Part shown: one piece after another, positions 24,720 to 42,775 of the stretch
Numbering within the stretch: position 1 is the stretch's first letter
How the letters are laid out: every line of letters begins with the position of its first letter
NCBI GenBank assembly: GCA_045639125.1
Contig: JAZUCL010000010.1
Coordinates: 36,213 to 100,212 of the forward strand
Origin: Eubacteriales bacterium
GTDB lineage: Bacteria > Bacillota > Clostridia > Oscillospirales > QAMX01
Direction: 5' to 3'
DNA length: 64,000 bases
The notes under the pieces: generated by a model
Databases searched by the model: none
What the model was told of the DNA's origin: nothing
What the model saw: the letters and a program-made list of their open reading frames with translations, nothing else
Made by a program: the position numbers and the translations under genes

Positions 24720-27700
24720 CTACTTAATAGGTGTCAAAACAATTTCAGAGAAAGCAGGATTGGTACTACCTATGGGATTTTTATCAACTACTGTAAATGA
24801 CAACTTGTTTACACCTTGATTAAGGGATACAGTACCCATAGATTTCCATTCGCATACTGCTACCCAAGTACTCGAAGGAAGATATAAGTTTTGAGTTTCA
24901 CCTTGCTTAATATCGTTAAATAACATATCAACGACACCACGGGAACGAGCCTTGTTGAATAATACATCAACTGTATATTCCGTATTGGATAATGGTACCT
25001 CAAAATCGAAATCAACCGAATCATCAAGCGAAACAAAGAAAGCACCACCTGATGGAGACTGATAATCAGGATAAAAAGTAACGCCGTTTGTAATACTACC
25101 TGCCATAGAATATGCAGGATATATGTATTTCTCAGCCTCAATACCTCTCCAAGATTCTGTCGGCAAATAAGCACTTACCATAGGTGCGGGAGAATCAACG
25201 AACTCAGATGCCATCTCACGGTCAAATCTAAACTCAAGTTGTGAGCCGTATGACAGACAGTTTCTTGAATTGATTGTCGTATCATAAGCAATAGGCTTTG
25301 TAGCACCGTTTTCACTCAACAAAATTGAATTACCTGTTGTAAGGTTAACAAATGTTGCATTGTTTTCCTCGTCAATCCTCCATGCGGTAACTTCAGAGTT
25401 AGTATCCTCAACATCTTCACGATTGAAACGAGGATCATCGATTACCTTCAATTCGTAAGTTGCTCTGTATATTTCGCCACACTTAACATCAAACGGAAAT
25501 TCTATACCCTTTGCAAGTTGAGCAGGAGTAACTGTGTAGACAACATCTTTGTCAGGGTCTACGTGCCAATCATCTGTCATACTGTCAGGAGGTGTAACAC
25601 GAGAGAAACGAATATTCAACTCTGTCGGAATCTCAAATCCGTACTCAGGTATTGTGTCAGAGAAACGAACTGCTGTCAAATCTCCACTTGTTGGTGTAAA
25701 GAATGTAGTGAATGGAAGAACTGCACCTGCTGCAGGTGTTCCGTCATAAACCTTAACCATTCTGAGGAACATTGTATTTTGGAAATTGCCAAAAGTGAAA
25801 GGATATTCTCTGTAAATATCTTCCCATGCCTCAAGTGCTGCACTAATGTCAACACCTGCTTTGTAGAGATATGCCGCATTGAGTGCACCCTCACCGATAC
25901 AACTAGCTTCATGGGAAACATTCTTACGCCAATTCTCCGCCACAAACTCTGCGCTGTCATACCAAAATCTTCTGTCAAATGAATACTCACGAACAAGGAA
26001 CCACAGACAACCACGACCAAATTCAAGTAATTGTTCACGAAGTACAGGATCTTTCTCGTAGTAGCCTACCATCGTTGCTGCTGAACCACAGTGTGCAACA
26101 ACATTGTCAACTGCGTCAGTTACATTGTTGCCAACAGATAGACCTGTGGGGCTATACTCTGTCCAGTAGTACTTTTGACCATTCCATTCACCTGTATGGA
26201 AACCGTAACGTGGGAACTGGTAGTAAACAAACTCTCGAGCCATGTCAAGGTATTTTTCATCACCGAACAATTCATAGGCTCTTACAAGGGATGTAACATT
26301 CAAAGAATTGGTATGGTGATCGCCTTCATGGTATGTCCACGTATATCCCGGCACGTCTTTCCATATCCAGTCAAAGATAGTGAACGCACCACGCCATTCA
26401 AGGCGAGGAACATATTTGTTTTCAGCATTTGGATCGCTCGTGTAATAGTCTTCAACGAAGGCATTTCTTCCGCCCTCTTTCCACTGTGAGTAATCCAAAT
26501 AGGTGAGAAGTTCTTTTGCTCTCGTTGAAAAATACTCATTACCGGTCATAACGTAATTGGGTAGATAATTGAGTCGAACATAGTCAAACTCTCTACGTGG
26601 AGCATACGTATCGGTATAGCCTGTGTGAGGAGACATTATCGGTCTGCCTACGATTGATGGGTCAATAACTTTTGCAGGCATGCCGGTAGCTGACATACCA
26701 AGAGAGCCTTCAATTACAGGCAATGCTTCATCATCTTTAATAACCGTTGGAGCAGCATTAAGTGCAAAGCCTCTTTCCTGACCGCCTGTATTTCCAAAGA
26801 ACGCTGTGCGGAAGAAAGGTTCTGTCCAAAGGTTAGGTACTTCAGTTGCACGTTCCTTAGCAGGAACGAACAGATTCCAGAACTCCTGCGGATCGTCATT
26901 TGTGGGATCATCATCTTCCGGAGCGTAAAAACTTTCAGTAATATCAACTACATTTGTTACGTAGTGCTTATGACCATCAGCATCAGTAAGATACTGACCT
27001 AAAGTCATATCGTCAAACCATACTGTGCCGGCACCATTTTCAATGCCAAGGATAATAGCACACTTTACGGCTCCCATAGGAGTAGATTCTATCTCCATTT
27101 GTCCTTTTGTCCATTCAGTAGATGGAACTAAAGTCTTGCTGAAGGAAGAAATGAAGTTGTCATTTTTGTCATACCACATAAACTTCAAGTATGGATTTCC
27201 TACCATATTTGCTGTCTTGTAGTTAACCGCTAGTTCTACTGTTCTTGCCCCAGTAGCAGCAACATTAAATTGAGTAGCAGTAACCTTCTGCGTGTCATCA
27301 GATACGGACAAACGAAGTGACTGATTTCCACCGCACTTTTCATTCCTATCATATCTAGCACTACTTCCAACACCTGAAGCGGAAAATGTCCATGCGGAAC
27401 TGTTTTCAAAATCAAAGTTGTAAGGGGTACGAACGCTGCCGGTCATTGTCATAGGAACAGTAACCGGTCCAAAAGTTATGTCATCGAACCATAATGTACC
27501 GGAAGTTGCTTCAATGTCAGGATAGATGGTTACAGATTCTGCACCATCAGGGGGCATTACCTCATAAGTCAAACGAACCCACTTAGGCTCATCTTTTTCG
27601 ACATATACACTTGTACTTGCAATACCAGCACCATCAGCGTCATTCCAGTTGACACGAATGTAAGGTGATTCGTCAACATCTACTGCACGATACCATGCAC

Positions 27701-28940
27701 TCAAACGATATACTAACTTATCCTCAGAATTAAGTTGCAAACGTGCCTGCTGTGCAAAGGCTCTACCTTTTGATGTCAAGGAGAGTTTTGCACTGCGATT
27801 ACCAGTATGTGCTTCGGTTGTGTCGTAGGTGGCACTTCCTCCACCCTCTCCATACAATCTCCAGTTCGCATCGGACTCAAAACTTGAGTTATTAACAATA
27901 TTTATTCCGGTTTCAAAACTACTATCAGTCTTTTCGCAAACAGAAATGTCATCAAACCAAACGCTTGTGCCTCTGTCGGCAAGTGTGGTTATGAATAACT
28001 TCATGGCAGGTACATATTGAGGTACTGTATACTCTACCTTATACTCACTCCACTGACTTGCTACTGTTCCTGTCTCGGCAGTCATGCTCTCAATTTCTGT
28101 GCCTATTTCGCCGCCACCTAAATATGTAAGGCCCTTAATTACAGGACGAGCATTTGCGGAAGTCGACATATAATTAAGACTAATTTCATAAGTCTTGCCA
28201 GGCGTTACAAAAATACCATCTTGGGAAAATCCTACATTATTCTCGCTTGGATTACCATTTGTGGCTGTAATCTTCATTGAACCATTGCCGACAGTTGAGT
28301 CGTACGATACAGTACCATAGCCATTAGAACTCAGTGCCCACATGGAAGCATCTGAATCAAATTCGCCATTCTTTATATGGTTGCCTTCTACCAATGTAGG
28401 ACCTTGTATAGAAATAGAATCTATCCATACAGTTGCGTCAACATTACCGCTTGAGAAAGCAACTTCAATGAATGTGGCGGTAGGTGCGGCAGTGTATACG
28501 AGCGTCAATTCATTCCAAGTATTAATTGAAAACGACTGGTTAGCACTTGCACTCATAGTTGCATCAAGACAAGTTGCTCCGTTATAAGACGTTGCTGAAA
28601 TCATTGGATTTGCCGATGAATCGCTCACCTTAACATTTGCACGGATGGTGTATGTCTCACCACCAATGGCAGGAATATACCTTTGACGTACTACAGAAGA
28701 AACACCCTCCAATTTAAGTGAAGCAGTACCTGAATAAGTTACGCTGTCATCAAGAGACGCATTGCCCGACACTTTTATCCAACCCACTGGCATACCATCT
28801 CCTACACCCTCAAAACTTGAGTTTGCAGGTGTTGTTGAGTTGAACATTGACGATATTGTAACTATACCAAGTGATAATGCTGCCAACATTAGTACAATTA
28901 GTGCCGTTTTTGTAATTCTCTTTTTGAAAATTTTCATCAT
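24720..28940 (-). CDS. Secreted multidomain glycan-binding or glycan-active protein with no SLH anchor. Signal peptide, 4 CBM4/9/22-like jelly-roll modules, a ~615-aa aromatic-rich central domain of unassigned family, and a C-terminal CBM-like module.
   Basis: The N-terminus MMKIFKKRITKTALIVLMLAALSLG is signal-like. Modules start with N-[GS]-x-F-E...W and end with (V/L)W(I/F)DD(I/M)(S/T), as in CBM_4_9-type domains. The central region is rich in W/Y and is near-identical to its paralog. Confidence 0.7.
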   Translation of the reverse strand: MMKIFKKRITKTALIVLMLAALSLGIVTISSMFNSTTPANSSFEGVGDGMPVGWIKVSGNASLDDSVTYSGTASLKLEGVSSVVRQRYIPAIGGETYTIRANVKVSDSSANPMISATSYNGATCLDATMSASANQSFSINTWNELTLVYTAAPTATFIEVAFSSGNVDATVWIDSISIQGPTLVEGNHIKNGEFDSDASMWALSSNGYGTVSYDSTVGNGSMKITATNGNPSENNVGFSQDGIFVTPGKTYEISLNYMSTSANARPVIKGLTYLGGGEIGTEIESMTAETGTVASQWSEYKVEYTVPQYVPAMKLFITTLADRGTSVWFDDISVCEKTDSSFETGINIVNNSSFESDANWRLYGEGGGSATYDTTEAHTGNRSAKLSLTSKGRAFAQQARLQLNSEDKLVYRLSAWYRAVDVDESPYIRVNWNDADGAGIASTSVYVEKDEPKWVRLTYEVMPPDGAESVTIYPDIEATSGTLWFDDITFGPVTVPMTMTGSVRTPYNFDFENSSAWTFSASGVGSSARYDRNEKCGGNQSLRLSVSDDTQKVTATQFNVAATGARTVELAVNYKTANMVGNPYLKFMWYDKNDNFISSFSKTLVPSTEWTKGQMEIESTPMGAVKCAIILGIENGAGTVWFDDMTLGQYLTDADGHKHYVTNVVDITESFYAPEDDDPTNDDPQEFWNLFVPAKERATEVPNLWTEPFFRTAFFGNTGGQERGFALNAAPTVIKDDEALPVIEGSLGMSATGMPAKVIDPSIVGRPIMSPHTGYTDTYAPRREFDYVRLNYLPNYVMTGNEYFSTRAKELLTYLDYSQWKEGGRNAFVEDYYTSDPNAENKYVPRLEWRGAFTIFDWIWKDVPGYTWTYHEGDHHTNSLNVTSLVRAYELFGDEKYLDMAREFVYYQFPRYGFHTGEWNGQKYYWTEYSPTGLSVGNNVTDAVDNVVAHCGSAATMVGYYEKDPVLREQLLEFGRGCLWFLVREYSFDRRFWYDSAEFVAENWRKNVSHEASCIGEGALNAAYLYKAGVDISAALEAWEDIYREYPFTFGNFQNTMFLRMVKVYDGTPAAGAVLPFTTFFTPTSGDLTAVRFSDTIPEYGFEIPTELNIRFSRVTPPDSMTDDWHVDPDKDVVYTVTPAQLAKGIEFPFDVKCGEIYRATYELKVIDDPRFNREDVEDTNSEVTAWRIDEENNATFVNLTTGNSILLSENGATKPIAYDTTINSRNCLSYGSQLEFRFDREMASEFVDSPAPMVSAYLPTESWRGIEAEKYIYPAYSMAGSITNGVTFYPDYQSPSGGAFFVSLDDSVDFDFEVPLSNTEYTVDVLFNKARSRGVVDMLFNDIKQGETQNLYLPSSTWVAVCEWKSMGTVSLNQGVNKLSFTVVDKNPIGSTNPAFSEIVLTPIK
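24730..27236. repeat. Copy A of a ~2.5-kb high-identity direct repeat (partner 30237-32737)
   Basis: Base-by-base comparison shows long identical runs. Shadow ORFs recur at offset +5507 (24860/30367, 25549/31056) and then +5501 (26300/31801, 26714/32215, 27025/32526), which implies an in-frame 6-nt indel. Confidence 0.85.
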
Positions 28941-29341: not shown

Positions 29342-32300
29342 CTATCTGCCAAGCAGAGTACAGATATTATGGAATACATTTGCTACTTCGCCACGAGAAG
29401 CATTTACACGTGGTGCAACAGAAGCCAAGTCGCTTAACTGCATTACGCCCTGTCCAAGTGCCCAGTTAAGAGCGGGCTTAGCGTAATCAGATACGGAGGA
29501 TGCATCGGTGTAGCCTGAAAGGTTACTGCTTGCATTTGCCTTTGATGCAAGTCCGCAATGGATTGCGTAGCGGTACATAATTGCCGCCAACTGCTCACGA
29601 GAAATTGGCTCATTTGGCATAAACTTGCCGTTTGTATATCCCTCTACAATGCCGTTTGCAGATGCCCATTTGGTAGCGGTTGCATACCATGCGTCATTTG
29701 CTACATCGCTAAAGGATATTCCCTGTGATACAGTAGGTTGACCTGCAAGACGATAAAGGATTGTTACTATCATTCCACGTGTGATTGTTGCGTCAGGACT
29801 AAACATATTGTTGCCTGTGCCATTCATCAGACCTGTAGATGATACGTAAACTACATCGTCAAAGTAACGGTAGGTTGAGTCTACATCATAGAATGTAGGT
29901 GCAAATACATCTACATCAGCCAAATTTGGTTTATCCTCTTCCTCGTTAAGACGTACTGTTACTTCAACAGAATCTCTGAAACTTTCATCGAAAGATGTTG
30001 CTGTAATTACTGTCTTACCGTTTGAAATTGCAGTTACAACACCTAAATCATTTACAGTTGCAACACTTGGGTTGCTACTTGTCCAAGTTATTGGATAAAC
30101 GTATGGATTATCAGTAACAATATAGGTGTCAAGACGCAACTTTGTATTTGTAGAACGCATTACTCTGTCGTGTTCTGCTATTACAAACTCATCATCATTT
30201 ATAGTTTCAATCTTTTCATCAGTCGTTTGGCCAACAGGTGTCAAAACAATTTCAGAAAAACCAGGATTGGTATTGCCTAAAGGATTTTTACCAACTACTG
30301 CAAATGATAACTTATTTATACCTTGGATAAGGGATACAGTACCCATAGATTTCCATTCGCATACTGCTACCCAAGTACTCGAAGGACGATACAAGTTTTG
30401 GGTTTCGCCTTGCTTAACATCGTTAATATACATATCAACGACACCACGGGAACGAGCCTTGTTGAATAATACATCAACTGTATATTCCGTATTGGATGAC
30501 GGTATCTCAAAATCGAAATCAGCCGAAGCACCAAGTGAAACAAATAAAGCACCACCTGATGGGGACTGATAATCAGGATAATAAGTAACGCCGTTTGTAA
30601 TACTACCTGCCATAGAATATGCAGGATATATGTATTTCTCAGCCTCAATACCTCTCCAAGATTCTGTCGGCAAATAAGCACTTACCATAGGTGCAGGAGA
30701 ATCAACGAACTCAGATGCCATCTCACGGTCAAATCTAAACTCAAGTTGTGAGCCGTATGACAGACAGTTTCTTGTATTGATTGTCGTATCATAAGCAATA
30801 GGCTTTGTAGCACCGTTTTCACTCAACAAAATTGAATTACCTGATGTAAGGTTAACAAATGTTGCATTGTTTTCCTCATCAATTCTCCATGCGGTAACTT
30901 CAGAGTTAGTATCCTCAACATCTTCACGATTGAAACTAGGATCATCGATTACCTTCAGTTCGTAAGTTGCCCTGAATATTTCACCACACTTAACATCAAA
31001 TGGAATTTCAACACCCGCTGCAAGTTGGGCAGGAGTAACTGTGTAGACAACATCTTTGTCAGGATCTACGTGCCAATCATCTGTCGTATTGTCAGGAGGT
31101 GTAACACGAGAGAAACGAATATTCAACTCTGTGGGAATCTCAAATCCGTACTCAGGTATTGTGTCAGAGAAACGAACTGCCGTCAAATCTGCAGTTGTTG
31201 GTGTGAAGAATGTAGTGAATGGAAGAACTGCACCTGCTGCAGGTGTTCCGTCATAAACCTTAACCATTCTGAGGTACATTGCACATTGCATACTGCCAAA
31301 AGTGAAAGGATATTCTTTGTAAATATCTTCCCATACCTCAAGTGCTGCACTAATGTCAACACCTGCTTTGTAGAGATATGCCGCCATGAGTGCACCCTCA
31401 CCTAAACAACTGTTTTCATGGGAAACAGCCTTACGCTTATTCTGCTCCACGTACTCAGCGCCGTCATACCAAAATCTTCTGTCAAATGAATACTCACGAA
31501 CAAGGTACCACAGACAACCACGACCAAATTCAAGTAATTGTTCACGAAGTACAGGATCTTTCTCGTAGTAGCCTACCATTGTTGCTGCTGAAGCGCAGTG
31601 TGCAATAGCATTGTCAATTGCGTCAGTAGTTGGGTTGCCATCACCTGTGGGGTTATACTCTGTCCAGTAGTACTTTTGACCATTCCATTCACCTGAATGG
31701 AAACCGTAACGTGGGAACTGGTAGTAAACAAACTCTCGAGCCATTTCAAAGTATTTTTCATCACCGAACAATTCATAGGCTCTTATAAGGGATGTAACAT
31801 TCAAAGAGTTGGTATGGTGATCGCCTTCATGGTATGTCCACGTATATCCCGGCACGTCTTTCCATATCCAGTCAAAGATAGTGAACGCACCACGCCATTC
31901 AAGGCGAGGAACATATTTGTTTGCAGCATTTGGATCGCTCGTGTAATAGTCTTCAACGAAGGCATTTCTACCGCCCTCTTTCCACTGTGAGTAATCCAAA
32001 TATGTGAGAAGTTCTTTTGCTCTCGTTGAAAAATACTCATTACCGGTCATAACGTAATTGGGCAGATAATTGAGTCTAATATAGTCAAACTCTCTACGTG
32101 GAGCATACGTATCGGTATAGCTTCCATGAGGAGACATTATCGGTCTGCCTACGATTGATGGGTCAATAACTTTTGTAGCCTTGCCGGTAGATGACATACC
32201 AAGAGATCCAATAACTACAGGCATCGTTTCATCATCTTTAATAACTGATGGAGCAGCATTAAGTGCAAAGCCTCTTTCCTGACCGCCTGTATTTCCAAAG

Positions 32301-35300
32301 AACGCTGTGCGGAAGAAAGGTTCTGTCCAGATGTTGGGGACTTCAGTTGCAAGAGGCTTAGCAGGAACAAACATAGCCCAGTACGCTTGTGGATCGTCGT
32401 ATGTGGGATCATCATCTTCCGGAGCGTAAAAACTTTCGGTAATATCAACTACATTTGTTACGTAGTGCTTATGACCATCAGCATCAGTAAGATACTGACC
32501 TAAAGTCATATCGTCAAACCATACTGTGCCGGCACCATTTTCAACGCCAAGGATAATAGCACACTTTGCAGTACCCTTAGGAGATAATGTCTCAATTTGT
32601 CCCTCTGTCCATTCATCAGATGGAGCTAAAGTCTTGCTGAAAGAAGAAATGAAGTTGTCATTTTTATCATACCACATAAACTTCAAGTATGGATTTCCTA
32701 CCATATTTGCTGTCTTGTAGTTAACTATAAGTTTAATTGTATTATTCTCAGTAGAATTAATATTAAACTGAGTAGCAGTTGCAGAATCTGTTTCAGATGC
32801 CGTAGTCAACTTAAGAGACTTGTTGCCCTTGTATGCATCTGAATCAAATGACGCTTCACTGCCATCACCACGTGTTTCAAGTTCCCAATAAGAACTTGCA
32901 TTTGTACTTTCTTCAAAATCTATGTCGTTGAATGGGTGACTCTTGCCGGTCATTGTCATAGGAACAGTAACCGTTCCAAAAGTTATGTCATCGAACCATA
33001 ATGTACCGGAAGTTGCTTCAATGTCGGGATAGACCTGTACGGTTTTTGCACCAACAGGAGACATTGCTTCCCAAGTTACACGAACCCACTCAGGCTCATC
33101 TTTTTCTATATATACACTTGTACCACCAAGGCTAGCATTATTATCGCCATACCAGTTGACACGAATCTGTGGTTTTGCGTCACCGGGAATTGCACGATAC
33201 CATGCACTCAAGCGATATACTGACTGATCATCAGAATTAAGTTGCATGCCTGATTGCTGTGCAAAGGCTCTACCTTTTGATGTCAAGGAGAGTTTTGCAC
33301 TGCGTTTGCCTGTATGTGCTTGGGTTGTGTCGTAGGTAGCAGTTCCTCCAGCGTTGCTGTACATTCTCCAGATCGAATTGGACTCAAAACTTGAGTTCAT
33401 AACAATATTTTCAAGTTTTTCTTTTACACTAATTGAGTCGATCCAAATTTCCTTATCCGCTGTTGAATTACCAACAAATTCTACTTTTAATGCAGTTGCA
33501 TTTACAGGGGCAGATTCAACTACCGCCAAACTCGTCCATTCTGTTTCAGATGATGTTTTTAGATTTGCATTAAAAGCATCACCAACGGGAGTATCACCAC
33601 AGTACCACCTAAGTTGCATATATGGTGCTGTGTCGGAGGAAAGAACAAATGCCTTTATCTCATAGTCTTTGCCGCCGATTACAGGAATACCACTTTGTGT
33701 AATAGATGCATTGCCTGCAAGTTTTGCACTGCTTGTGCCTTTTTGTGCCTTTGTTGTGTCAATAGTAGCGTTGCCACTCCAACCGGAAACATCTCCTTCA
33801 AAATCACCGTTTACAGTAAGGTTTTTGGAAATGTCAAGAACAAGTGGTGCTCCAGACACAGATACTTCGTCAATCCAAGTAGACTTTCCGGATTCTGCTG
33901 CACCTACAAATGAAAGGGACATTGCGGTTGCATCGGAAGGTGCTGATAATTTACCGGAAATTTTCTGCCATTCATTAGATGCTGATTTTGCTGCGATCTG
34001 GAAAGTATCCTTTCCGCCAATACTAAGTAATGTGTCGCCTTTGTACCACTGTACGTTTACAGAAGGTACATCTGTGCTGTCAGTACAAACATACGCACTG
34101 ATATTATACTCATAACCGCCAAGAATTGTAATTCTTGACTGTTTTGCAATAACAGCATTATTTCCGCTTGCTGTCATTTTAAGGGATGCTATTCCCTTAC
34201 GGTAAGAATTAGTAACTGCTGTGCCTGTTCCGTTTTCAATATTCCAGCCGATTGCACTTGCAGAATCTGTGGGGTTAATCTCTGTCTTTGGCTCAAAAGA
34301 ACCATTTGCAACGAGATTCTTTTCATTCAAAGCAACAAGACTTACAGAGTCAATCCATAATGCCTTGCCACTTTCCGTGCAGTTGGTAGGAATAGAGAAT
34401 CTCATTTCCACTATACCTGCAGGAATTTCGAGTACACCTGAAAATTTTGTCCAACTTGTAGGTGCAGCATCAAACTTAACAAGGACACCACCAGTTTGCT
34501 TACCATTGGAATCATAATAGTAGTAGTCAATTTCAGGTGCTGCTCCGGGATCGTCTGTAAAGAAGTAAGCAGAAACTTCATACTGCTTGCCGGCCTCAAC
34601 AGGTATTCTTGCATTATTTGCTGTCTGAACTGTAGCATTACCTGTCGCTTTAAGGGCTTTTCCACCGCTGTGTACATTGGTACTGTCAGCGGAGATTGCA
34701 CCTAAAGCCGCTTTAGTCCAGCCAAGAGTGCCGTCCTCGAAATTACCGTTAAATACACGGTTGCTGTCTGTGTATTCTTCCACCAAAACAGAGTCAAGCC
34801 ATACTGCCTTATCACTTGCTGTGTTGTTGGAAGGAATAGATAATCTCACTGCAACTGTACCTTCAGGAATTTCGATTAAACCTGACAGTTTTGTCCAACC
34901 ACTTGTCGGTGCAGTCTCAAACTTAACAACGGTACCACCACCAGCAGAAGTTCCATCGCTCTTATAACGGTAGTAGTCAATTTGAGGTTTTGATTCGGGG
35001 TTGTCTGTATAGAAGTATGCAGAAAATTCATACTTCTTGCCAGCCACAACAGATATTTTTGCATCCATCGCTGTCTGCGCTATAGCATTACCTGTCATCT
35101 TAAGGGATTTTTCACCGCTGTGTACATAGGTATTATCAGCGGTGGTTTTACCATTAGCCGCTTTAGTCCAACCCGTAGTTCCGTTCTCAAAACCGGGGTT
35201 TGTAACAGATGGTTCTACATCAGTTGCATACGCCGTAAGCGGAGCAAAAGACGAAAACGCATCGAGTGGTAGCATTGTAATTGTCATAGCAACACAAAGC

Positions 35301-35335
35301 ACCATTGCAAGTACGCGAGTGAGTGTTTTTTTCAT
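29342..35335 (-). CDS. S-layer-homology-anchored surface paralog. Signal peptide, 6 CBM4/9/22-like modules, the same central domain, a CBM-like module, a Big_2 Ig-like domain, and 3 SLH repeats.
   Basis: 1997 aa with signal-like MKKTLTRVLAMVLCVAMTITMLP. Big_2-like ITWTSSNPSVATVNDLGVVTAISNGKTVITAT. Three SLH repeats (FYDVD...TRGMIVTILYRLAG; FSDVANDAWY...SREQLAAIMYRYA; YTDASSVSDYAKPALNW...SRGEVANVFHNI). Confidence 0.8.
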   Translation of the reverse strand: MKKTLTRVLAMVLCVAMTITMLPLDAFSSFAPLTAYATDVEPSVTNPGFENGTTGWTKAANGKTTADNTYVHSGEKSLKMTGNAIAQTAMDAKISVVAGKKYEFSAYFYTDNPESKPQIDYYRYKSDGTSAGGGTVVKFETAPTSGWTKLSGLIEIPEGTVAVRLSIPSNNTASDKAVWLDSVLVEEYTDSNRVFNGNFEDGTLGWTKAALGAISADSTNVHSGGKALKATGNATVQTANNARIPVEAGKQYEVSAYFFTDDPGAAPEIDYYYYDSNGKQTGGVLVKFDAAPTSWTKFSGVLEIPAGIVEMRFSIPTNCTESGKALWIDSVSLVALNEKNLVANGSFEPKTEINPTDSASAIGWNIENGTGTAVTNSYRKGIASLKMTASGNNAVIAKQSRITILGGYEYNISAYVCTDSTDVPSVNVQWYKGDTLLSIGGKDTFQIAAKSASNEWQKISGKLSAPSDATAMSLSFVGAAESGKSTWIDEVSVSGAPLVLDISKNLTVNGDFEGDVSGWSGNATIDTTKAQKGTSSAKLAGNASITQSGIPVIGGKDYEIKAFVLSSDTAPYMQLRWYCGDTPVGDAFNANLKTSSETEWTSLAVVESAPVNATALKVEFVGNSTADKEIWIDSISVKEKLENIVMNSSFESNSIWRMYSNAGGTATYDTTQAHTGKRSAKLSLTSKGRAFAQQSGMQLNSDDQSVYRLSAWYRAIPGDAKPQIRVNWYGDNNASLGGTSVYIEKDEPEWVRVTWEAMSPVGAKTVQVYPDIEATSGTLWFDDITFGTVTVPMTMTGKSHPFNDIDFEESTNASSYWELETRGDGSEASFDSDAYKGNKSLKLTTASETDSATATQFNINSTENNTIKLIVNYKTANMVGNPYLKFMWYDKNDNFISSFSKTLAPSDEWTEGQIETLSPKGTAKCAIILGVENGAGTVWFDDMTLGQYLTDADGHKHYVTNVVDITESFYAPEDDDPTYDDPQAYWAMFVPAKPLATEVPNIWTEPFFRTAFFGNTGGQERGFALNAAPSVIKDDETMPVVIGSLGMSSTGKATKVIDPSIVGRPIMSPHGSYTDTYAPRREFDYIRLNYLPNYVMTGNEYFSTRAKELLTYLDYSQWKEGGRNAFVEDYYTSDPNAANKYVPRLEWRGAFTIFDWIWKDVPGYTWTYHEGDHHTNSLNVTSLIRAYELFGDEKYFEMAREFVYYQFPRYGFHSGEWNGQKYYWTEYNPTGDGNPTTDAIDNAIAHCASAATMVGYYEKDPVLREQLLEFGRGCLWYLVREYSFDRRFWYDGAEYVEQNKRKAVSHENSCLGEGALMAAYLYKAGVDISAALEVWEDIYKEYPFTFGSMQCAMYLRMVKVYDGTPAAGAVLPFTTFFTPTTADLTAVRFSDTIPEYGFEIPTELNIRFSRVTPPDNTTDDWHVDPDKDVVYTVTPAQLAAGVEIPFDVKCGEIFRATYELKVIDDPSFNREDVEDTNSEVTAWRIDEENNATFVNLTSGNSILLSENGATKPIAYDTTINTRNCLSYGSQLEFRFDREMASEFVDSPAPMVSAYLPTESWRGIEAEKYIYPAYSMAGSITNGVTYYPDYQSPSGGALFVSLGASADFDFEIPSSNTEYTVDVLFNKARSRGVVDMYINDVKQGETQNLYRPSSTWVAVCEWKSMGTVSLIQGINKLSFAVVGKNPLGNTNPGFSEIVLTPVGQTTDEKIETINDDEFVIAEHDRVMRSTNTKLRLDTYIVTDNPYVYPITWTSSNPSVATVNDLGVVTAISNGKTVITATSFDESFRDSVEVTVRLNEEEDKPNLADVDVFAPTFYDVDSTYRYFDDVVYVSSTGLMNGTGNNMFSPDATITRGMIVTILYRLAGQPTVSQGISFSDVANDAWYATATKWASANGIVEGYTNGKFMPNEPISREQLAAIMYRYAIHCGLASKANASSNLSGYTDASSVSDYAKPALNWALGQGVMQLSDLASVAPRVNASRGEVANVFHNICTLLGR
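30237..32737. repeat. Copy B of the ~2.5-kb direct repeat (partner 24730-27236)
   Basis: See copy A. A second, more diverged block of similarity lies at about 32946-33405 versus 27441-27905. Confidence 0.85.
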
Positions 35336-35627: not shown

Positions 35628-36713
35628 TCAGGCATGAATTATTTCAAAATTCTGCTCGTTATAGATATAATTCATACGCTCATTTGTATTTTCAAATATT
35701 GAGTATGCAAGAAGCAATTTTGCATAGGTGGTTTCCATTGTGTATCCGTATACAAAATTTATCTTTTTCCCGTTTGCTTCATGCTTTGCTATTATATCAG
35801 AAGTTTCGTATATCTCACCCTTTAGTATTGCCGGTGCAATAAAAGCATCTGTCTTTCTTTTCGATTTGGCACAAGCGTCTATCATGGCAAGAATTGAGTC
35901 ACTGCTATAGTGTGAGTTGTCCTTCGTTTTTTCACAGCAAGCAGTACCTGAATGATATGTGCCGTGGAGGACGGCTGAATATTTATCGTAATTAAATGAC
36001 TCGTAATTTATACCCACATAGGGAAAAATCATTAACACGCATTGAGAAAGTGTCCAATCTGCAAATATATCAATTCCAGTTTTAATCTTTTGCGGTGGGT
36101 ACATTATATTTATTTTGGCAAAGATGTCCTTGTAGTTTTTATTTGAAATGTCAGTAATATTGATTGCTCCGACACTTGTAAAGTCCTCAGAATAGATTTT
36201 GCATTGTTCAAGTCGTGATGCAAGATGCAGATACATCTGCTTATCAGATACATTTTCGTATACCGCGTATACATTAGCAGGGATTTTTCTGCAAATACAT
36301 TCTACCGCACATTTGAAATTTGCATCACCATTTGATTTTTGTGACTGTAATCTGTCGTTGGCAGATACAAAAAACACAGGAATTTTCGTGCCGCTCAAAA
36401 TCATTGAAAACAGTGCAGCAGAATACGCCAATGTATCTGTTCCGTGGGCAAAAATTATACCGTCAAAATTTTCATTCGCCACTTCTTTGCGATACACTCG
36501 AATTATCTCGTTTAGATTTTCTATCGTCATGTTTTCGCTCAATATATTTAGGTTTTCACTCAACTTTATATCTACCTTGTTGGCGTATACTGAATTTGAG
36601 TTGTAGAAGTTTTCCGTTAGCAGTGTGCCTGCATTTTCGTCTATTGATTTTGTACCGTCTTTATTCAGTTTACAGCAAATAGTCCCACCGACTAAAATCA
36701 ACAATATCCGCAT
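35628..36713 (-). CDS. Asparaginase/glutaminase-family (type I asparaginase / GatD-like) amidohydrolase
   Basis: 361 aa. N-terminal nucleophile motif ILVGGTICC (GGT), second motif IFAHGTDTLAYSAA (HGTDT), candidate Lys in EQCKIYSEDFTS. AGGAGG RBS. Last gene of the gat operon. Confidence 0.7.
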   Translation of the reverse strand: MRILLILVGGTICCKLNKDGTKSIDENAGTLLTENFYNSNSVYANKVDIKLSENLNILSENMTIENLNEIIRVYRKEVANENFDGIIFAHGTDTLAYSAALFSMILSGTKIPVFFVSANDRLQSQKSNGDANFKCAVECICRKIPANVYAVYENVSDKQMYLHLASRLEQCKIYSEDFTSVGAINITDISNKNYKDIFAKINIMYPPQKIKTGIDIFADWTLSQCVLMIFPYVGINYESFNYDKYSAVLHGTYHSGTACCEKTKDNSHYSSDSILAMIDACAKSKRKTDAFIAPAILKGEIYETSDIIAKHEANGKKINFVYGYTMETTYAKLLLAYSIFENTNERMNYIYNEQNFEIIHA

Positions 36714-36732
36714 ATAGTCCTCCTATTGACTA

Positions 36733-36763
36733 CTGCCGAAAGAGAGCAGTTCTCCTTCGGCAG
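36733..36763 (-). other. Strong stem-loop between gatB and the asparaginase-family gene
   Basis: 13-bp stem with one mismatch (CTGCCGAAAGAGA / TCTCCTTCGGCAG) and a 5-nt loop. No U-tract. The RBS AGGAGG follows 8 nt later on the minus strand. Confidence 0.6.
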
Positions 36764-36771
36764 TTATACGT

Positions 36772-38193
36772 TTACAAATTAACTTTTTTTTCCAAGATTT
36801 CCTTAATAACGGATGGTTCGCCAACACCTTTAAGTTCTTTCATGCAAGCACCAAATAATGCCTGTATAGCCTTGACTTTACCATTTTTGTAGTCCTCAAC
36901 CGCCTGTGCATTGTCTAAAAGCACCTTGTCTATGACATTTTCAATGGTAGATAAGTCTACCTTCTTGTCAAAGCCCTGCTCCTTACAATATGCGATTGGG
37001 TCAACTCCGTTTTCAACTACGGCAATTAAAATCTTCTTACCTGCACCACGGTTAATTTCTCCGCTATCCACCATTTTAATGACAGATGCAAGTTCCTGTG
37101 CTGTAATTTTAAGGTCGTTGAATGTCTTTTTGTCCTTACGAAGAATACCTGCACAGTCGGTCAGTATCCAGCCGGCAGCATCCTTTGCATTACAGCCCAG
37201 AGATACTGTATCATCAAGGAGTTTGCTAATATTTTGGTTTGCAATAAGCATATCAATTTCCTTATCGGATATGCCTGCCATTCGATACTCCTCTGCCTTC
37301 TCATCTACTGCAACAGGTTTATTTGCACGGATTTCTTCAAGCCATTCATCGTCAATTATAATAGGCATTAAGTTTGCGTCAGGGAAGTATCGGTAGTCTG
37401 CCTCTGTTTCCTTGTTTCGCATAGCGAATGTCTTGCCGCTCACATCGTCAAAACGTCTTGTTTCTTGAACAAGTTCTTCCGTTTCGTACTCAATAGCGTC
37501 AATGTGTCGCTGTGCCTCGTAGCGAATTGCACGTTCAATAGCCTCAAATGAACTCATGTTCTTAATCTCTGTACGAACACCATATTCACTACTGCCCTGT
37601 GGTCGAACAGAAAGGTTTACGTCACAACGCATTGCTCCCTCTTCACATTCGGAAATACCGCCTGAGCGGAACATATTCTTTAGTTTGTTAAGGTATGATA
37701 ACACTTCTTCTGCACTGCGGAAGTCAGGCTGTGTAACAATTTCAATCAGAGGTACACTTGTGCGGTTGAAGTCAACAAGAGAGTGTTTTCCAACGTGTAC
37801 AAGTTTACCAGCGTCTTCCTCCATGTGAATTTGCTTTATGCGAATATCTCGTGGGCCGTCAGATGTTTTAAGAGAAACGCAACCGTCTGTGCATATAGGG
37901 TGGTTTAACTGTGTAATCTGATACGCACAAGGAAGGTCGGGATAGTAGTAGTTCTTCTTGTCAAATGTAGTATACTTGTTGATGTTACAGTTGAGCATAA
38001 GACCTGCCGTAACTGCAAGTTCAACTACACGCTTGTTCATAACAGGAAGCATACCGGGCATACCGCTACAAGCAGGACAAACACAATCGTTTGGTTCATT
38101 TGCAGAGGAGTGACCACCGCAAGAACAGAAAATTTTCGATTTGGTATCTAACTCAACATGAGTTTCAAGACCTATAACTAATTCATAGTTCAT
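36772..38193 (-). CDS. gatB: Asp/Glu-tRNA amidotransferase subunit B
   Basis: 473 aa; IGLETHVELDTKSKIFC, YPDLP, C-terminal YqeY-like tail. Canonical length. Confidence 0.9.
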   Translation of the reverse strand: MNYELVIGLETHVELDTKSKIFCSCGGHSSANEPNDCVCPACSGMPGMLPVMNKRVVELAVTAGLMLNCNINKYTTFDKKNYYYPDLPCAYQITQLNHPICTDGCVSLKTSDGPRDIRIKQIHMEEDAGKLVHVGKHSLVDFNRTSVPLIEIVTQPDFRSAEEVLSYLNKLKNMFRSGGISECEEGAMRCDVNLSVRPQGSSEYGVRTEIKNMSSFEAIERAIRYEAQRHIDAIEYETEELVQETRRFDDVSGKTFAMRNKETEADYRYFPDANLMPIIIDDEWLEEIRANKPVAVDEKAEEYRMAGISDKEIDMLIANQNISKLLDDTVSLGCNAKDAAGWILTDCAGILRKDKKTFNDLKITAQELASVIKMVDSGEINRGAGKKILIAVVENGVDPIAYCKEQGFDKKVDLSTIENVIDKVLLDNAQAVEDYKNGKVKAIQALFGACMKELKGVGEPSVIKEILEKKVNL

Positions 38194-38206
38194 ATTTATC
38201 TAAACC

Positions 38207-39391
38207 TCACTTTTCTAAACTTGCGGCAAGACTTAGAAGTGTGCTTTCGGAAAAATGCTTACCCAACAACTGTACTCCACCACTTACGAGTGCCGGAACA
38301 CCGATAAGGTTTGCAACTGCCGTAAAGACGCTCTCGTCAAACACCTTACTAAATGCTGTGTGAATGTCGTATGCCTCGTATTTCGTATGACTACTGCACG
38401 GCATTAAAACAGCATCGTACTTACTCATCAGTTTTTCAAAGTTCTCCGCAATAACACGACGGACTTTAAGAGATTTCTGATAGCAATCTTTATAACGATT
38501 TTTCGACAACACATCTGAGCCGTATAAAATAACTGCTTTTGTCAGGAAGTTAAAGCCCTCGGTTCTTGTATTTACGTAAAGTTCGTCAATATTTCTGTAA
38601 TTTGCGGTACGATATCCAAACTTTACTCCGTCATAACGAGAGATATTGTTACACGTTTCAGCAGTCATAAGAATTTGCCAAGCGGTATTTGCATTGTCAA
38701 AGAAATCACATGAAATTTCTTCCACTACTACGCCTTTTTCTGCAAGACTCTTAGCATAAGCGGCAATTTTTTTCTTTGTTTCTTCGTCTGCTTTCTCTAC
38801 TAATTCTTTTACAATACAAACTCTCTTTTTGGAAATATCATTAGATATGGAGTAATCGTAAGACTCTGCCTTAAGGCTTGTGCCATCCTTATCGTCATGT
38901 CCTGCAATTACTGTCATTATCTTACTTATTTCCTGTGCATTTTTTGCATATACGCCAACTTGCTCACCGGAAGCCGCACAAGAGATAACTCCGTATCGAG
39001 AAACGGTACCATAGGTGGGCTTTAAGAAATCTACATTGGAGATAGCGGCCGCACGTCTTGGTGCACCATTCATATCTACGCCAAGTGCTCCCTCGACTTC
39101 GCCACTTGATACTAACTCGGCAGCCGCACCTTTAAGGTCATTTTCCTTTTCGCTATAGTAGGAGAACTCACCTACAAGGTCAAGACCAAACTCGCCTACG
39201 TCTGTTTTTCCGGAAATAGTGTAACCGCTGTTTTCAAGACGCACAACTGCCTCTGCACTAAACAGAGGTTTATAACCCTCTAAAATTCGTGAACCTGCAG
39301 TTGCAGTAACACCTTTAACGAGTAAAGTGTCGTCTACTGCAATATTACCTTTATCATTTAATTTTACTGTATAATATTTCACTTCAAACAC
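38207..39391 (-). CDS. GatA-like amidase-signature protein, shortened and lacking both catalytic serines (predicted pseudo-glutaminase)
   Basis: 394 aa versus ~485 for GatA. It aligns by eye to the AS signature: canonical GGSSGGS...GSDTGGSIRQPAA..KPTYG corresponds here to NDLKGAA...GVDMNGAPRRAAA..KPTYG. GTG start 1 nt after the aspS-gatC stop. Confidence 0.75.
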   Translation of the reverse strand: MFEVKYYTVKLNDKGNIAVDDTLLVKGVTATAGSRILEGYKPLFSAEAVVRLENSGYTISGKTDVGEFGLDLVGEFSYYSEKENDLKGAAAELVSSGEVEGALGVDMNGAPRRAAAISNVDFLKPTYGTVSRYGVISCAASGEQVGVYAKNAQEISKIMTVIAGHDDKDGTSLKAESYDYSISNDISKKRVCIVKELVEKADEETKKKIAAYAKSLAEKGVVVEEISCDFFDNANTAWQILMTAETCNNISRYDGVKFGYRTANYRNIDELYVNTRTEGFNFLTKAVILYGSDVLSKNRYKDCYQKSLKVRRVIAENFEKLMSKYDAVLMPCSSHTKYEAYDIHTAFSKVFDESVFTAVANLIGVPALVSGGVQLLGKHFSESTLLSLAASLEK

Positions 39392-39392
39392 C

Positions 39393-41462
39393 TCACTTTA
39401 CGAGTCTTGGAACCTGCCAACTGTCCTCACTGCGTTCAGGAGCACCTTCAAGAAGACTGTCACGGCTGAAAGGCTGTTTACGCTCATCTTCACGCAGTAC
39501 GTTGGTCATAGGCATAACGTGTACCATTTCTTCCACGTTTTCCGTATCTATACTCTTAAGTTTAGACTCGTGTTCACTCATAGTCTTGAAAATATCCTGC
39601 ATAACAGTCTCCTCACTCTCTGTTAAAGAGATTTGGTTTAACTGTTGGTCGTTGGAGAATGTTGCACGTTTCATCTGTGCCTTAGTTGCATTTGGAGTTG
39701 AACGACCTGCCAATGCATTCGTATTACCAAGAAGATGGACGTCCTCAAGTTGTTGGTTTGTAACTTCACTCGGTGCACCAAGAAGCAAGTCTTGTGCGTT
39801 ACCGTTGAGTGGGAATGCGATTATTTCGAGAATTTTTTCCTCATCGGTAAGAAGCATTACCATTCTGTCGATACCAGGTGCCATACCTGCGTGAGGCGGT
39901 GCACCAAACTGGAATGCAGTATAAAGAGCGTTGAATCGAGCCTTTAATTCGTCCTCGTTATATCCTGCAATAGCAAATGCCTTCTTCATAATATCAATGC
40001 TATGGTTTCTTACAGCACCAGATGCCAACTCAATACCATTACAAACAAGGTCATACTGGTACGCCAAAACTTCCGTAGGATCCTTTGTCAGAAGTGCTTC
40101 CATACCGCCTTGTGGCATTGAGAATGGGTTGTGGGTGAAAATCGTTTCACCTGTCTCCTCGTCAATCTCATACATTGGGAAATCTACCACGAAGCAGAAC
40201 TCAAAAGCATCATCTGTGATTAGGTTAAGTTGTTCTTTCCTTGCAAGCCATGTGCGGATAAGTCCTGCCTTTTTCTCTGTATCGTTTTTCTTATCGTCGC
40301 AGATGAAGAACAGAGTTTCCCCTTCCTTAACACCTGTAATCTCTTGAATTTCTATCTTTTGAGCATCAGTTAAAAACTTTGCAATAGGTCCTGCAAACAC
40401 ACCTTCTTTAAGAGTGATGTATCCAAGACCGCCAAGACCAACATCCTGAGATGTTGCATACTTGAGAGAGTCCTCAAAAAACTTCTTGGACTTACCTGTA
40501 CAATCAGCAACGATACCTCTTACAGGCTTTCCCTTAAACGCAGGGAATGCAACACCTGAGAAAAAGTCAGTAAGGTCGCAAATGAGAAGTGGGTTTCTAA
40601 GGTCAGGCTTATCTGAGCCGTATGTCATCATCGCATCTGCATAAGTGATACGGCGGAAAGGCTTTGGGGTTATCTTCTTATCTGAGAACGTCTTGAATGT
40701 GTCATAAATAACGTCCTCACATATATCAAGAACTTCTTCCTGAGTTGCAAATGCCATTTCAAAGTCAAGTTGATAGAACTCACCGGGTGAACGGTCAGCA
40801 CGTGCATCTTCATCTCTAAAGCATGGTGCAACTTGGAAATATCTGTCAAATCCAGACACCATAAGAAGTTGCTTAAACTGCTGAGGTGCTTGGGGCAACG
40901 CATAGAATTTTCCCGGATGTTTACGGCTTGGTACAAGGAAATCTCTTGCACCCTCCGGAGATGATGCAGACAAAATAGGTGTTTGCATTTCAAGGAAATT
41001 CTTATCCTCCATCTTATTACGAAGATGACGGATAATCTTTGAACGCATTACAAGATTGTTATGGTTTTTCGGGTTTCTAAGGTCAAGATAACGATACTTA
41101 AGACGAAGTTCGTCTTTGTTTGCTCTTGACGTTCTCACATCAAAAGGAAGCATATTGAGGCTCTTACCCAACACTTCAAGTTCAGTTGCCACAAGTTCAA
41201 CATTACCTGTATCAATTTTTGTGTTTACAGTTTCCTCGTCTCTTTTTTCAACAACACCGCTTACAGATATAACTGTTTCACGGTTTACATTTTTCAAAAG
41301 TTCTTCATTGTGTACAACAACCTGCGTTACACCTGTATAGTCACGCAAGTCGATGAATATGACACCGCCATGGTCACGAACAACTTCAACCCAACCTGCA
41401 AGTTGGACAGTTTTTCCGATATGCTCATCACGGATGTCATTGCAGAATAAAGTTCTATACAT
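39393..41462 (-). CDS. aspS: Aspartyl-tRNA synthetase (bacterial type with GAD insertion) fused in frame to a C-terminal GatC domain
   Basis: Start at ATG 41462 (MYRTLFCNDIRDEHIGK) after AGGAGG. Class-II motifs FRDED and GAPPHAGMAPGIDR. The last ~93 aa (39396-39674) read as GatC (VHVMPMTNVLREDE...APERSEDSWQVPRLV). No stop between the two parts. Confidence 0.85.
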   Translation of the reverse strand: MYRTLFCNDIRDEHIGKTVQLAGWVEVVRDHGGVIFIDLRDYTGVTQVVVHNEELLKNVNRETVISVSGVVEKRDEETVNTKIDTGNVELVATELEVLGKSLNMLPFDVRTSRANKDELRLKYRYLDLRNPKNHNNLVMRSKIIRHLRNKMEDKNFLEMQTPILSASSPEGARDFLVPSRKHPGKFYALPQAPQQFKQLLMVSGFDRYFQVAPCFRDEDARADRSPGEFYQLDFEMAFATQEEVLDICEDVIYDTFKTFSDKKITPKPFRRITYADAMMTYGSDKPDLRNPLLICDLTDFFSGVAFPAFKGKPVRGIVADCTGKSKKFFEDSLKYATSQDVGLGGLGYITLKEGVFAGPIAKFLTDAQKIEIQEITGVKEGETLFFICDDKKNDTEKKAGLIRTWLARKEQLNLITDDAFEFCFVVDFPMYEIDEETGETIFTHNPFSMPQGGMEALLTKDPTEVLAYQYDLVCNGIELASGAVRNHSIDIMKKAFAIAGYNEDELKARFNALYTAFQFGAPPHAGMAPGIDRMVMLLTDEEKILEIIAFPLNGNAQDLLLGAPSEVTNQQLEDVHLLGNTNALAGRSTPNATKAQMKRATFSNDQQLNQISLTESEETVMQDIFKTMSEHESKLKSIDTENVEEMVHVMPMTNVLREDERKQPFSRDSLLEGAPERSEDSWQVPRLVK

Positions 41463-41750
41463 ACCAAGTCCTCCTAAATATGCCAAAAAATATAAAAATC
41501 CCGAGAATACAAAACATATTCTCGGGACGAGCAAACAAAAATAAGCCCGCGGTGCCACCCGCATTGATACTTCAAAAGTATCCTCTTTAACTGTTTAATT
41601 GTTGATTATCGGAGTGTTGTCAAACTTACTACTCATCTCAAATGTGCTTTCAGTCCATGGCACATTCTCCCTAACAGACTTTCCAAAAAAGTTGAGTCTC
41701 CAACTACAAATAATACTAAAAGGATAACACTAATCGCTCTATTTGTCAAT
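41463..41750 (-). promoter_or_regulatory. T-box riboswitch leader of the aspS-gat operon
   Basis: Minus strand: T-box sequence AAUGCGGGUGGCACCGCGGG (41565-41547), then a terminator CCCGAGAAUA-7 nt-UAUUCUCGGG + U-run (41526-41490). The terminator's 5' arm can alternatively pair into the antiterminator. Upstream lie AGGGAGA and CUGAAAGC elements resembling the stem-I AG bulge and distal loop. Candidate promoter TTGACA 41749-41744. Confidence 0.8.
41490..41526 (-). terminator. T-box attenuator terminator
   Basis: 10-bp perfect stem (41500-41509 / 41517-41526) followed on the minus strand by AUUUUUAUAUUUUUU. Confidence 0.8.
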
Positions 41751-41979: not shown

Positions 41980-42008
41980 TTGTATAAACGGATGTGTTGT
42001 GGTAAAAT
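41980..42008 (+). promoter_or_regulatory. Candidate promoter for the TIM-barrel/SLH gene pair
   Basis: TTGTAT (41980-41985), 17-nt spacer, TGG-TAAAAT (42003-42008). Confidence 0.45.
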
Positions 42009-42772: not shown

Positions 42773-42775
42773 GGG

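Follow-up and report, generated by a model that had tools for sequence, protein, structure and literature searches.

The closest described systems to the protein unit analysed here are carbohydrate enzymes with a catalytic toroid of helical hairpins. Enzymes of the AGE superfamily, such as the sulfoquinovose isomerase YihS (PDB 7ag4 and 2zbl) and cellobiose 2-epimerase (3vw5 and 4z4l), are single-domain cytoplasmic proteins with mono- or disaccharide substrates. Glycoside hydrolase (GH) family GH127 (PF07944), in which the barrel is followed by a beta-sandwich, uses a Cys nucleophile together with a Cys3-Glu zinc site, and GH76, of the same six-hairpin fold, carries an Asp-Asp pair. In the toroid polysaccharide lyases (PL), heparinase II/III and DSepi1, an alpha/alpha toroid likewise precedes a beta-sandwich and the catalytic set comprises Asn or His plus Tyr, with a His-to-Tyr spacing of ~54-56 residues in the alginate lyases of PL5, PL15 and PL17 and in HepII and DSepi1. 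The animal Golgi enzyme heparan-sulfate glucuronyl C5-epimerase (GlcE) also has a helical-hairpin toroid as its catalytic domain, for which PMC13308652 (citing Debarnot et al. 2019) gives E499, Y500, N510, Y560 and Y578 as the catalytic residues. The present analysis concerns a unit of about 615 amino acids (aa) common to two surface proteins, A and B, encoded in a 64,000-nucleotide stretch of contig JAZUCL010000010.1 of an Eubacteriales bacterium (hereafter the window). This unit is probably a catalytic, glycan-active module of a new family with a six-hairpin fold, its novelty being judged against Pfam-A, NCBIfam and PDB sequences.

The genes and the two copies of the unit are located as follows:

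24720..28940, minus strand: gene for protein A, 1406 aa (open reading frame (ORF) and translation)
29342..35335, minus strand: gene for protein B, 1997 aa (ORF and translation)
25146..26993, minus strand: central unit of protein A, aa 650-1265, spanned end to end by the family profile
30653..32494, minus strand: central unit of protein B, aa 948-1561

BLASTP gave 69% identity between proteins A and B as a whole and 90% between their central units, and YLTDADGHKHYVTNVVDITESFYAPEDDDPT, FFGNTGGQERGFALNAAP, NYLPNYVMTGNEYFSTRAKELL, WTYHEGDHHTNSLNVTSL, YYQFPRYGFH, YYWTEY and FDRRFWYD were each found in both; the original prediction of one domain common to the two surface proteins was thus borne out, every motif quoted in it being present in both copies. 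The predicted end at 25146 and the paralog start at 30653 were reproduced, but the codon of Y650 occupies 26991-26993, which moves the start to 26993, one codon past the 26990 given originally. The feature lies on the minus strand, and since the plus-strand frame at these coordinates is full of stops, the reverse strand must have been read implicitly in that prediction. The shared unit is real, but the single domain proposed for it turned out to be a composite of an N-terminal extension, a helical toroid and a beta-sandwich plus tail. Its surroundings, described as an array of carbohydrate-binding module (CBM) type with an SLH anchor, were confirmed in part: CBM_4_9 arrays are present in both proteins, but Big_2 and three SLH modules in B only. 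Protein A thus consists, in order, of a signal peptide or transmembrane segment, a CBM_4_9-like array, the central unit and a C-terminal module, and protein B of a signal peptide, six CBM_4_9 stretches, the central unit, the C-terminal module, Big_2 and the three SLH modules, a hydrophobic N-terminal signal or transmembrane segment being found in both. The database entry P0011, an NCBI singleton, has the same sequence as protein A.

The domain had been left unassigned by eye, and it remained so in profile searches. No Pfam-A or NCBIfam model reached its cutoff on the central unit, and a search of PDB sequences (phmmer with the single sequence plus two family profiles) returned no significant match, only hits at E > 0.03; these sub-significant hits (LanC-like, GH76-like and a GH127) all arose via the toroid helix motif 'xxYELTGDxKYLxxA'. 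The beta-sandwich, the N-terminal extension and the C-terminal module, scanned separately, gave zero Pfam matches, and literature searches for a family matching the central unit found none. When 30 family members were scanned individually against Pfam, weak matches were confined to the six-hairpin clan: GH127 in 11 members, C5-epim_C in 10, Pec_lyase in 4, Alginate_lyase (PF05426) in 3 (best E = 0.0015, sub-cutoff), and GlcNAc_2-epim, GH88, GH65m and GH76 in one member each, while Hepar_II_III (PF07940) was matched by none. A lead towards gellan lyases was abandoned; the literature places these enzymes in PL33, and no link to the present family was made.

A word-indexed search of 5.8 billion proteins yielded 10 homologs at E-values well outside the range of chance (1e-126 to 3e-35), all 'hypothetical' and without Pfam domains, and a second, alignment-based word-indexed search added one member. 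The profile search of 1.84 billion cluster representatives returned 71 sequences at E <= 1e-3, 53 of them at E < 1e-30, with no spill-over into any known family. Family loci numbered 23 among ~185,000 species genomes and 16 among 241 million metagenome records. The former were distributed over Paenibacillus, Clostridia and Bacillota metagenome-assembled genomes (MAGs), Nonomuraea, a Propionibacteriaceae isolate and Actinomycetota MAGs, as well as MAGs of Verrucomicrobiia, Aminicenantes, Armatimonadota and Bdellovibrionales; the NCBI name for all homologs is 'hypothetical protein'. In 10 of the 11 long relatives (922-2323 aa) the unit is fused to CBM_4_9, CBM_X2, SLH, Big_2, fn3, Laminin_G_3 or FIMAH, the remaining one having no Pfam match, and the Pfam scan recognised a catalytic domain in none of the 11. 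A signal peptide, transmembrane segment or TAT-like leader is found in about half of the members, including all long ones, and several short Paenibacillus and actinobacterial forms start directly with the unit and look cytoplasmic. As had been proposed, the unit can be inferred to form the catalytic core of an enzyme acting on glycans, since it is the sole catalytic candidate in these 11 multidomain relatives, carries invariant polar residues and occurs in sugar-related loci.

The predicted structure is that of a helical toroid followed by a beta-sandwich. AlphaFold2, run for the full unit on a 12-sequence alignment, gave a model with pLDDT 80.8 and pTM 0.88, and the toroid alone (A aa 744-1059) was modelled with pLDDT 77 and pTM 0.83. 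In domain numbering, where Y650 of protein A is residue 1, the parts are the following:

26712..26993, minus strand: N-terminal extension of the A unit, aa 650-743; short strands and helices in the model (domain residues 1-95)
25764..26711, minus strand: aa 744-1059 of A, a helical-hairpin toroid and predicted catalytic domain (AlphaFold2, Foldseek)
31271-32212, minus strand: helical-hairpin toroid of B, counterpart of the A toroid
25146..25763, minus strand: aa 1060-1265 of A, a beta-sandwich and its tail; the model has strands between domain residues 410 and 552

Four long helix pairs were modelled (135-150/153-169, 226-243/246-263, 296-312/316-340 and 362-378/384-400), with a turn of 2-5 residues inside each pair and loops of 56, 32 and 21 residues between pairs, accompanied by shorter N-terminal helices. 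In a Foldseek search of the toroid alone against the PDB, all top 50 matches had a probability of 0.94-1.00, and nearly all were six-hairpin (alpha/alpha)6 carbohydrate enzymes or uncharacterised relatives of these, the named ones being YihS, cellobiose and glucose 2-epimerases, GH76, GlcE (4pxq and 4pw2), GH88/GH105 and PL27. All of them are distant (TM score about 0.5, 11-16% identity). As far as the models tell, the unit is a member of the six-hairpin (alpha/alpha) toroid fold class, and the guess of such a toroid, originally offered as weak, is thereby supported.

Conservation was determined from a 51-member alignment of the unit, including the acidic and His residues (HEGDHH among them) for which this check had been proposed. 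Seven residues, W211, H227, G264, Y280, N297, Y345 and Y375, are invariant (51/51), and at least 90% conservation was found for H226 (47/51), Y217, D293, E336, D340 and E349, as well as for R158 and a number of Pro and Gly positions. The acidic residues all fall short of invariance, the best being E349 (49/51), D293 (48/51), E336 (47/51) and D340 (46/51). Domain position 361 is His in 41 and Tyr in 9 of the members. Mean column conservation is 0.51 in the toroid, 0.27 in the N-terminal extension and 0.27-0.28 in the flanks. The residues of greatest interest are encoded at these positions:

26313..26318, minus strand: His875-His876 (domain H226/H227) of HEGDHH, at a toroid helix N-terminus
26154..26156, minus strand: Tyr929 (domain Y280) of YYWTEY, the proposed counterpart of GlcE Tyr500
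26115-26117, minus strand: domain D293, an alternative proposed counterpart of GlcE Asn510
26103..26105, minus strand: Asn946 (domain N297), at a helix N-terminus; N297 or D293 is proposed for GlcE Asn510
25959..25961, minus strand: Tyr994 (domain Y345) of FWYD, in the column of GlcE Tyr560 in the hhalign comparison given below
25911..25913, minus strand: His1010 (domain H361), at a helix N-terminus, a possible counterpart of GlcE Tyr578

With the exception of R158 and Y375, the model places the conserved residues on the three long loops or where the first helix of a pair begins, the latter holding for H226/H227, N297 and H361. Judging from the topology of the model, these loops and helix N-termini should be on one face of the barrel, the usual place of the active-site funnel.

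The conserved sites have also been largely spared in the divergence of the two window copies. The synonymous divergence (dS) across the shared region of A and B is 0.07-0.20, and for this reason their duplication, or a gene conversion between them, must be recent. The ratio of nonsynonymous to synonymous divergence (dN/dS) is 0.26 in the beta-sandwich and ~0.89, at dS 0.07, in the toroid. The 39 toroid differences avoid conserved sites: they occur at 3.6% of the positions with conservation >=0.9 and at 19% of the variable positions, and the invariant residues are kept in both copies. At S281, N290, G303, F332 and S347, which are well conserved and differ between the copies, B has the family consensus and A is derived. 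As far as the sequences allow a judgement, the pattern in copy A, which has no anchor, is consistent with relaxed constraint or a shift in specificity and not with pseudogenisation. The consensus, SLH-anchored B and the derived, anchor-less A form a natural pair for the study of specificity.

The genomic contexts of the relatives fall into three classes. In the first, the short forms of Paenibacillus and actinobacteria are found near sugar-uptake genes, their neighbours including ABC transporters, AraC regulators, GH130, an MGH1-like GH and DUF4838; a GH88 unsaturated-glucuronyl hydrolase is encoded 2 kb upstream of the Paenibacillus qinlingensis member P0002. In the second, represented by loci L028 and L036 (the latter identical to L045, and its protein 63% identical to that of L028), the family gene is located inside a co-directional polysaccharide-biosynthesis cluster of the Wzx/Wzy type. 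In L036 the family gene is preceded, in order, by Wzz/GNVR, UDP-GlcNAc 2-epimerase, a weakly GH88-like protein and an ADH-GFO/IDH/MocA fusion, and it is followed by a Wzx-type flippase, a hexapeptide acetyltransferase, a 493-aa protein, two GT4 glycosyltransferases, DegT and an acetyltransferase. The third class comprises the long CBM- and SLH-bearing forms, as in the window. When 418 neighbouring ORFs of 41 loci were clustered without bias, no universal partner emerged; the commonest neighbours were GFO/IDH/MocA oxidoreductases (8 loci), AraC regulators (6), ABC permeases (6), a GntR-HTH/SBP-like fusion (5) and RidA (4), and GH127, GH3 and sugar ABC transporters were found as well. Glycan-processing enzymes such as AlgL (PL5) and BcsZ (GH8) are commonly encoded in polysaccharide-biosynthesis clusters, and the L028/L036 family gene, with its signal peptide or transmembrane segment, resembles in this respect toroid enzymes that trim a polymer during its export, although it has no sequence relationship to AlgL or BcsZ and the window genes lie outside such a cluster. 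Altogether, the genomic context supports a role in glycan metabolism and names no substrate.

Several further observations were made in these loci. The weakly GH88-like protein of L036 (6116-7351, 411 aa, two genes upstream of the family gene; E = 1.4e-5, sub-cutoff) is possibly a second six-hairpin protein in the same operon. The GntR-HTH/SBP-like fusion, i.e., a GntR-type helix-turn-helix (HTH) joined to a periplasmic-binding-protein-like domain, adjoins a family gene four times in Paenibacillus and once in a Verrucomicrobiia MAG (L001:8506-9885, L029:6477-7892, L004:4632-6026, L007:343-1740 and L018:8158-9531) and could be a dedicated sensor whose ligand could reveal the pathway substrate. 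Finally, in an uncultured Clostridia MAG two family genes stand in tandem (L011:2876-7274; products of 730 and 733 aa with 63% identity), RidA and a PGA_cap-domain protein being encoded before them, and tandem duplication in the family is therefore not unique to the window.

The exported unit, placed beside CBM_4_9-type arrays, would act on an extracellular polysaccharide, and in B it would do so while tethered to the cell wall via SLH. General acid/base catalysis might be performed by H226/H227, Y280, N297 or D293, Y345 and the His or Tyr at position 361, that is, by the Tyr/His/Asn chemistry of GlcE and the toroid polysaccharide lyases, in which the uronate carboxylate would first be neutralised and the C5 proton then abstracted. 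A lyase would subsequently beta-eliminate the 4-O-glycosidic bond, and an epimerase would reprotonate C5 from the other face. This uronate chemistry is proposed tentatively, its chance being put somewhat below even; it is favoured because the Tyr, His and Asn residues are invariant and the carboxylates are not, because the similarity to GlcE is collinear and because position 361 alternates between His and Tyr. The CBM-rich surface architecture would favour a lyase over an epimerase for the window proteins. Fold class, family limits, conservation, domain fusions and genomic contexts are direct results of the analysis; catalysis itself, the roles of single residues, the uronate substrate and the choice of lyase over epimerase are inferred. 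The His-to-Tyr spacing of the unit (53-54 residues from H226/H227 to Y280) can be set beside that of the toroid lyases and DSepi1; the residue equivalence is a putative one, and the unit shows no significant sequence or Foldseek match to these enzymes.

The best sequence-profile affinity of the unit is to GlcE, and the motifs LVRAYxLT.D..YL..A and W-Y/T-E-Y-P-T are common to both. An hhalign comparison of the 51-member profile with an alignment of 120 GLCE orthologs gave a probability of 52.8% (E = 1.4e-4) over 171 collinear columns covering GLCE 420-610. The probability fell to 0.1% with the reversed control and did not exceed 1.9% in 20 column shuffles or 8.7% in 20 block shuffles. The C-terminal sequence and numbering of human GLCE were verified on PDB 6hzz and 6i01, with the Y578F mutant as a register check. 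A comparison with a single GlcE sequence (probability 4%) was uninformative because the template had an effective sequence number (Neff) of 1, and it was replaced by the ortholog alignment. Of the catalytic residues named above for GlcE, Y560 (TIYDL) falls on the invariant Y345 (FWYDS), E499/Y500 (WYEEYP) on Y280/S281 (YWTEYSP), one residue off E279/Y280, and N510 on D293, four residues ahead of the invariant N297; in individual hidden Markov model (HMM) alignments the EY-to-EY register is exact in two members. Moreover, P0044, a clear member, passes the C5-epim_C (PF06662) cutoff (35.2 vs 23.3 bits), alone among the 30 scanned.

A considerable number of observations weigh against this interpretation. 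A probability of 53% is, at the level of sequence profiles, moderate evidence and not proof of homology to GlcE. The window domain scores below the C5-epim_C gathering cutoff (17.9 bits, E = 0.0023; full protein 15.3 bits), the GH127 and C5-epim_C signals on it are confined to one helix pair, and the family-profile hmmsearch of the 1.84 billion representatives found no C5-epim_C protein. P0044 reaches its score by adding two partial stretches, both of which match profile positions 32-86, and the GlcE HMM gives only local hairpin matches to individual members, in two registers, and also matches a second hairpin of P0044; for these reasons the Pfam match of P0044 was not taken as proof of membership. 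Because the GLCE hairpin fits another P0044 hairpin, part of the similarity is likely to reflect the generic toroid repeat, whose motif 'LVRAYxLTGDxKYLxxA' is also found in LanC-like, GH76 and GH127 proteins. GlcE Y578 falls in an alignment gap just before S360/H361. Structurally, GlcE is not the best match (TMq 0.34 over 175 columns vs ~0.5 for YihS and GH76), and the classical toroid lyases (PL5/8/12/15/17/21) are absent from the top Foldseek matches, in which PL27 (5noa) holds rank 50. According to PMC13308652, the domain order of GlcE is beta-hairpin, beta-sandwich and alpha domain, whereas the toroid comes first in our unit. The unit has, in addition, a 40-residue conserved loop (W211...HE.DHH) before the toroid, for which no GlcE counterpart was found beyond 'EPGWY', and, unlike the animal enzyme, its family members come from bacteria and are in many cases exported and joined to CBM and SLH modules. 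As regards the context, the genes flanking A and B are housekeeping ones (smc, ftsY, rph, a Ham1-family gene, gatB, a gatA-like gene and aspS-gatC), no polysaccharide-utilisation locus was found within the window, GH88 and EamA are not recurrent beyond closely related genomes, and the GT4 cassette occurs in only two related lineages.

The main rival is a new six-hairpin glycoside hydrolase family, in which two of the near-invariant carboxylates (D293, E349, E336 and D340) would serve as acid and base or nucleophile, with Tyr, His and Trp binding the substrate, and a neutral or mixed cell-surface polysaccharide would be depolymerised. Most six-hairpin folds retrieved by Foldseek indeed belong to GH families (GH76, GH88, GH105, GH127, GH48 and GH9), the GH76 structures at TMq ~0.5; GH127, with its identical barrel-then-sandwich order, is the Pfam family matched by most members, the full-length model aligns to HypBA1 over 581 columns, and an architecture of CBM_4_9, CBM_X2 and SLH is classic for Firmicute glycanases. 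The neighbouring GH130, MGH1-like GH, GH127 and GH3 genes and sugar ABC transporters would also suit a hydrolase. We nevertheless hold it to be on the unlikely side, as three Tyr, one His, one Asn and one Trp are present in 51/51 members and no acidic residue is; every GH Pfam match is sub-cutoff, the best being GH127 with 22.6 bits, and 13.5 bits for the window domain, vs 24.9 required. In no alignment column does Cys exceed a frequency of 0.35, and hence the nucleophile and zinc site of GH127 cannot be conserved in the family; the Asp-Asp pair of GH76 also has no conserved equivalent, and both families are touched over one helix pair only.

A non-catalytic toroid, i.e., a ligand-binding or structural module similar to the thioester domain (TED) of alpha-2-macroglobulin and complement or to a lectin, which would aid adhesion to a polymer, appears improbable. 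It could be argued for by the remaining modules of the window proteins, all of which are binding or anchoring, by the high toroid dN/dS between A and B and by the nominally best Foldseek matches of the full-length model, which include complement C3b with its TED toroid flanked by beta-sandwiches. The C3b alignments, however, are meaningless (TM 0.14-0.21, root-mean-square deviation >30 A) and this match was rejected as an artefact; neither copy has a CxEQ motif and there is no conserved Cys, the A/B substitutions avoid the conserved sites, the invariant His, Tyr and Asn are placed at helix N-termini and in long loops, as is typical of active sites, and an adhesin would make no sense for the several short, signal-less and probably cytoplasmic members encoded in sugar-utilisation loci. 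An AGE-like sugar epimerase or isomerase, comparable with YihS or cellobiose 2-epimerase, in which H227 and H361 would de- and reprotonate C2 of a reducing-end sugar, seems very improbable. The AGE enzymes are the closest toroid matches (probability 1.0, TMq ~0.5, ~315 columns), the best one being YihS (7ag4, E = 7.7e-4, TMq 0.5), followed by cellobiose and glucose 2-epimerases, and they share conserved His at inner-helix N-termini; H227, N297 and H361 stand at the N-termini of successive helix pairs, ~65-70 residues apart, and the catalytic His/Glu/His of AGE enzymes are placed in a similar pattern. At the same time, identity is only 12-16% with marginal E-values (7.7e-4 or higher), position 361 is Tyr in the 9 members mentioned, and at the Pfam level there is no relationship: GlcNAc_2-epim (PF07221) was matched by the one member out of 30 at E = 0.0034 and 17.1 bits vs a cutoff of 23.4. 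The present family adds a beta-sandwich and invariant Tyr residues to the toroid, and we know of no precedent for a reducing-end isomerase that carries 4-6 CBMs together with an S-layer anchor or is encoded beside a Wzx flippase. The uronate-directed Tyr/His/Asn chemistry is tentatively preferred for the unit.

A more far-reaching form of this proposal, in which the family would be a new lyase or polymer-level C5-epimerase family acting on bacterial (amino)uronic-acid polysaccharides and bridging animal heparan-sulfate C5-epimerase and bacterial surface enzymes, is considered rather unlikely. Such a target is suggested by the L028/L036 Wzx/Wzy clusters with their GFO/IDH/MocA, DegT and acetyltransferase genes, a trio typical of the diacetamido-uronic-acid pathway. 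The two diverging, surface-displayed window copies would then be directed at a foreign or self exopolysaccharide. If the active site were truly GlcE-like, the family would provide a bacterial outgroup for the divergence of C5-epimerases and lyases. If the unit is catalytic at all, it would found a new carbohydrate-active enzyme family with a known fold and a distinct sequence family and conserved-residue constellation. Candidate new families of this kind are not rare; what is notable here is how sparse the family is, its possible link to GlcE and its placement within biosynthesis clusters. The extreme sparsity and scatter over phyla suggest a rare substrate, plausibly a specific bacterial exopolysaccharide, and enzymes for such substrates are in demand for analysing glycans and breaking down biofilms.

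The remaining modules of the two proteins are the following:

29345..29902, minus strand: three SLH modules of protein B (Pfam), the cell-wall anchor
24723..25145, minus strand: C-terminal 141-aa module of A, starting GIEAEKYIYPAY (A/B comparison)
30230-30652, minus strand: C-terminal 141-aa module of B (A/B comparison)

The CBM_4_9 family (PF02018; Pfam cutoff 25.9 bits) is recognised in A with 97.7 bits (E = 9e-28, 3 stretches) and in B with 149.3 bits (E = 1e-43, 6 stretches), and B additionally matches SLH (1e-24) and Big_2 (2e-07). The N-terminal array of B (32495-35224) is also matched by the NCBIfam 'NTTRR-F1 domain' (5 stretches, 97.6 bits vs a cutoff of 70), and its repeats match the C-terminal part of the Mep72 metzincin model. 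The C-terminal module follows the unit in Paenibacillus qinlingensis P0001 and P0002 too, and could represent an unclassified binding module associated with the central-unit family. Since it has zero Pfam matches and a lone marginal PDB sequence match (MiXBM, 7ehg, E = 0.04), the term 'CBM-like' stays a guess for this module.

Rfam, promoter and terminator scans gave nothing relevant. Identical terminator-like hairpins were seen antisense inside both paralog coding regions (27186-27211 and 32684-32709, plus strand), and these are most simply explained as a by-product of the duplication and not as functional terminators. Directly upstream of protein B, an unusual tRNA-amidotransferase gene set (35628-41564, minus strand) encodes an AspRS with a C-terminally fused GatC domain (723 aa), GatB, a GatA-like amidase with ~60 N-terminal residues absent (267 bits vs a gatA cutoff of 481) and an asparaginase-like protein of 361 aa, which resembles archaeal GatD below the cutoff. 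Beyond this set, at 41999-43690 on the plus strand, a 257-aa ORF without Pfam or NCBIfam match is followed directly by a 304-aa SLH-domain protein, and this is another small cell-wall-anchored gene pair.

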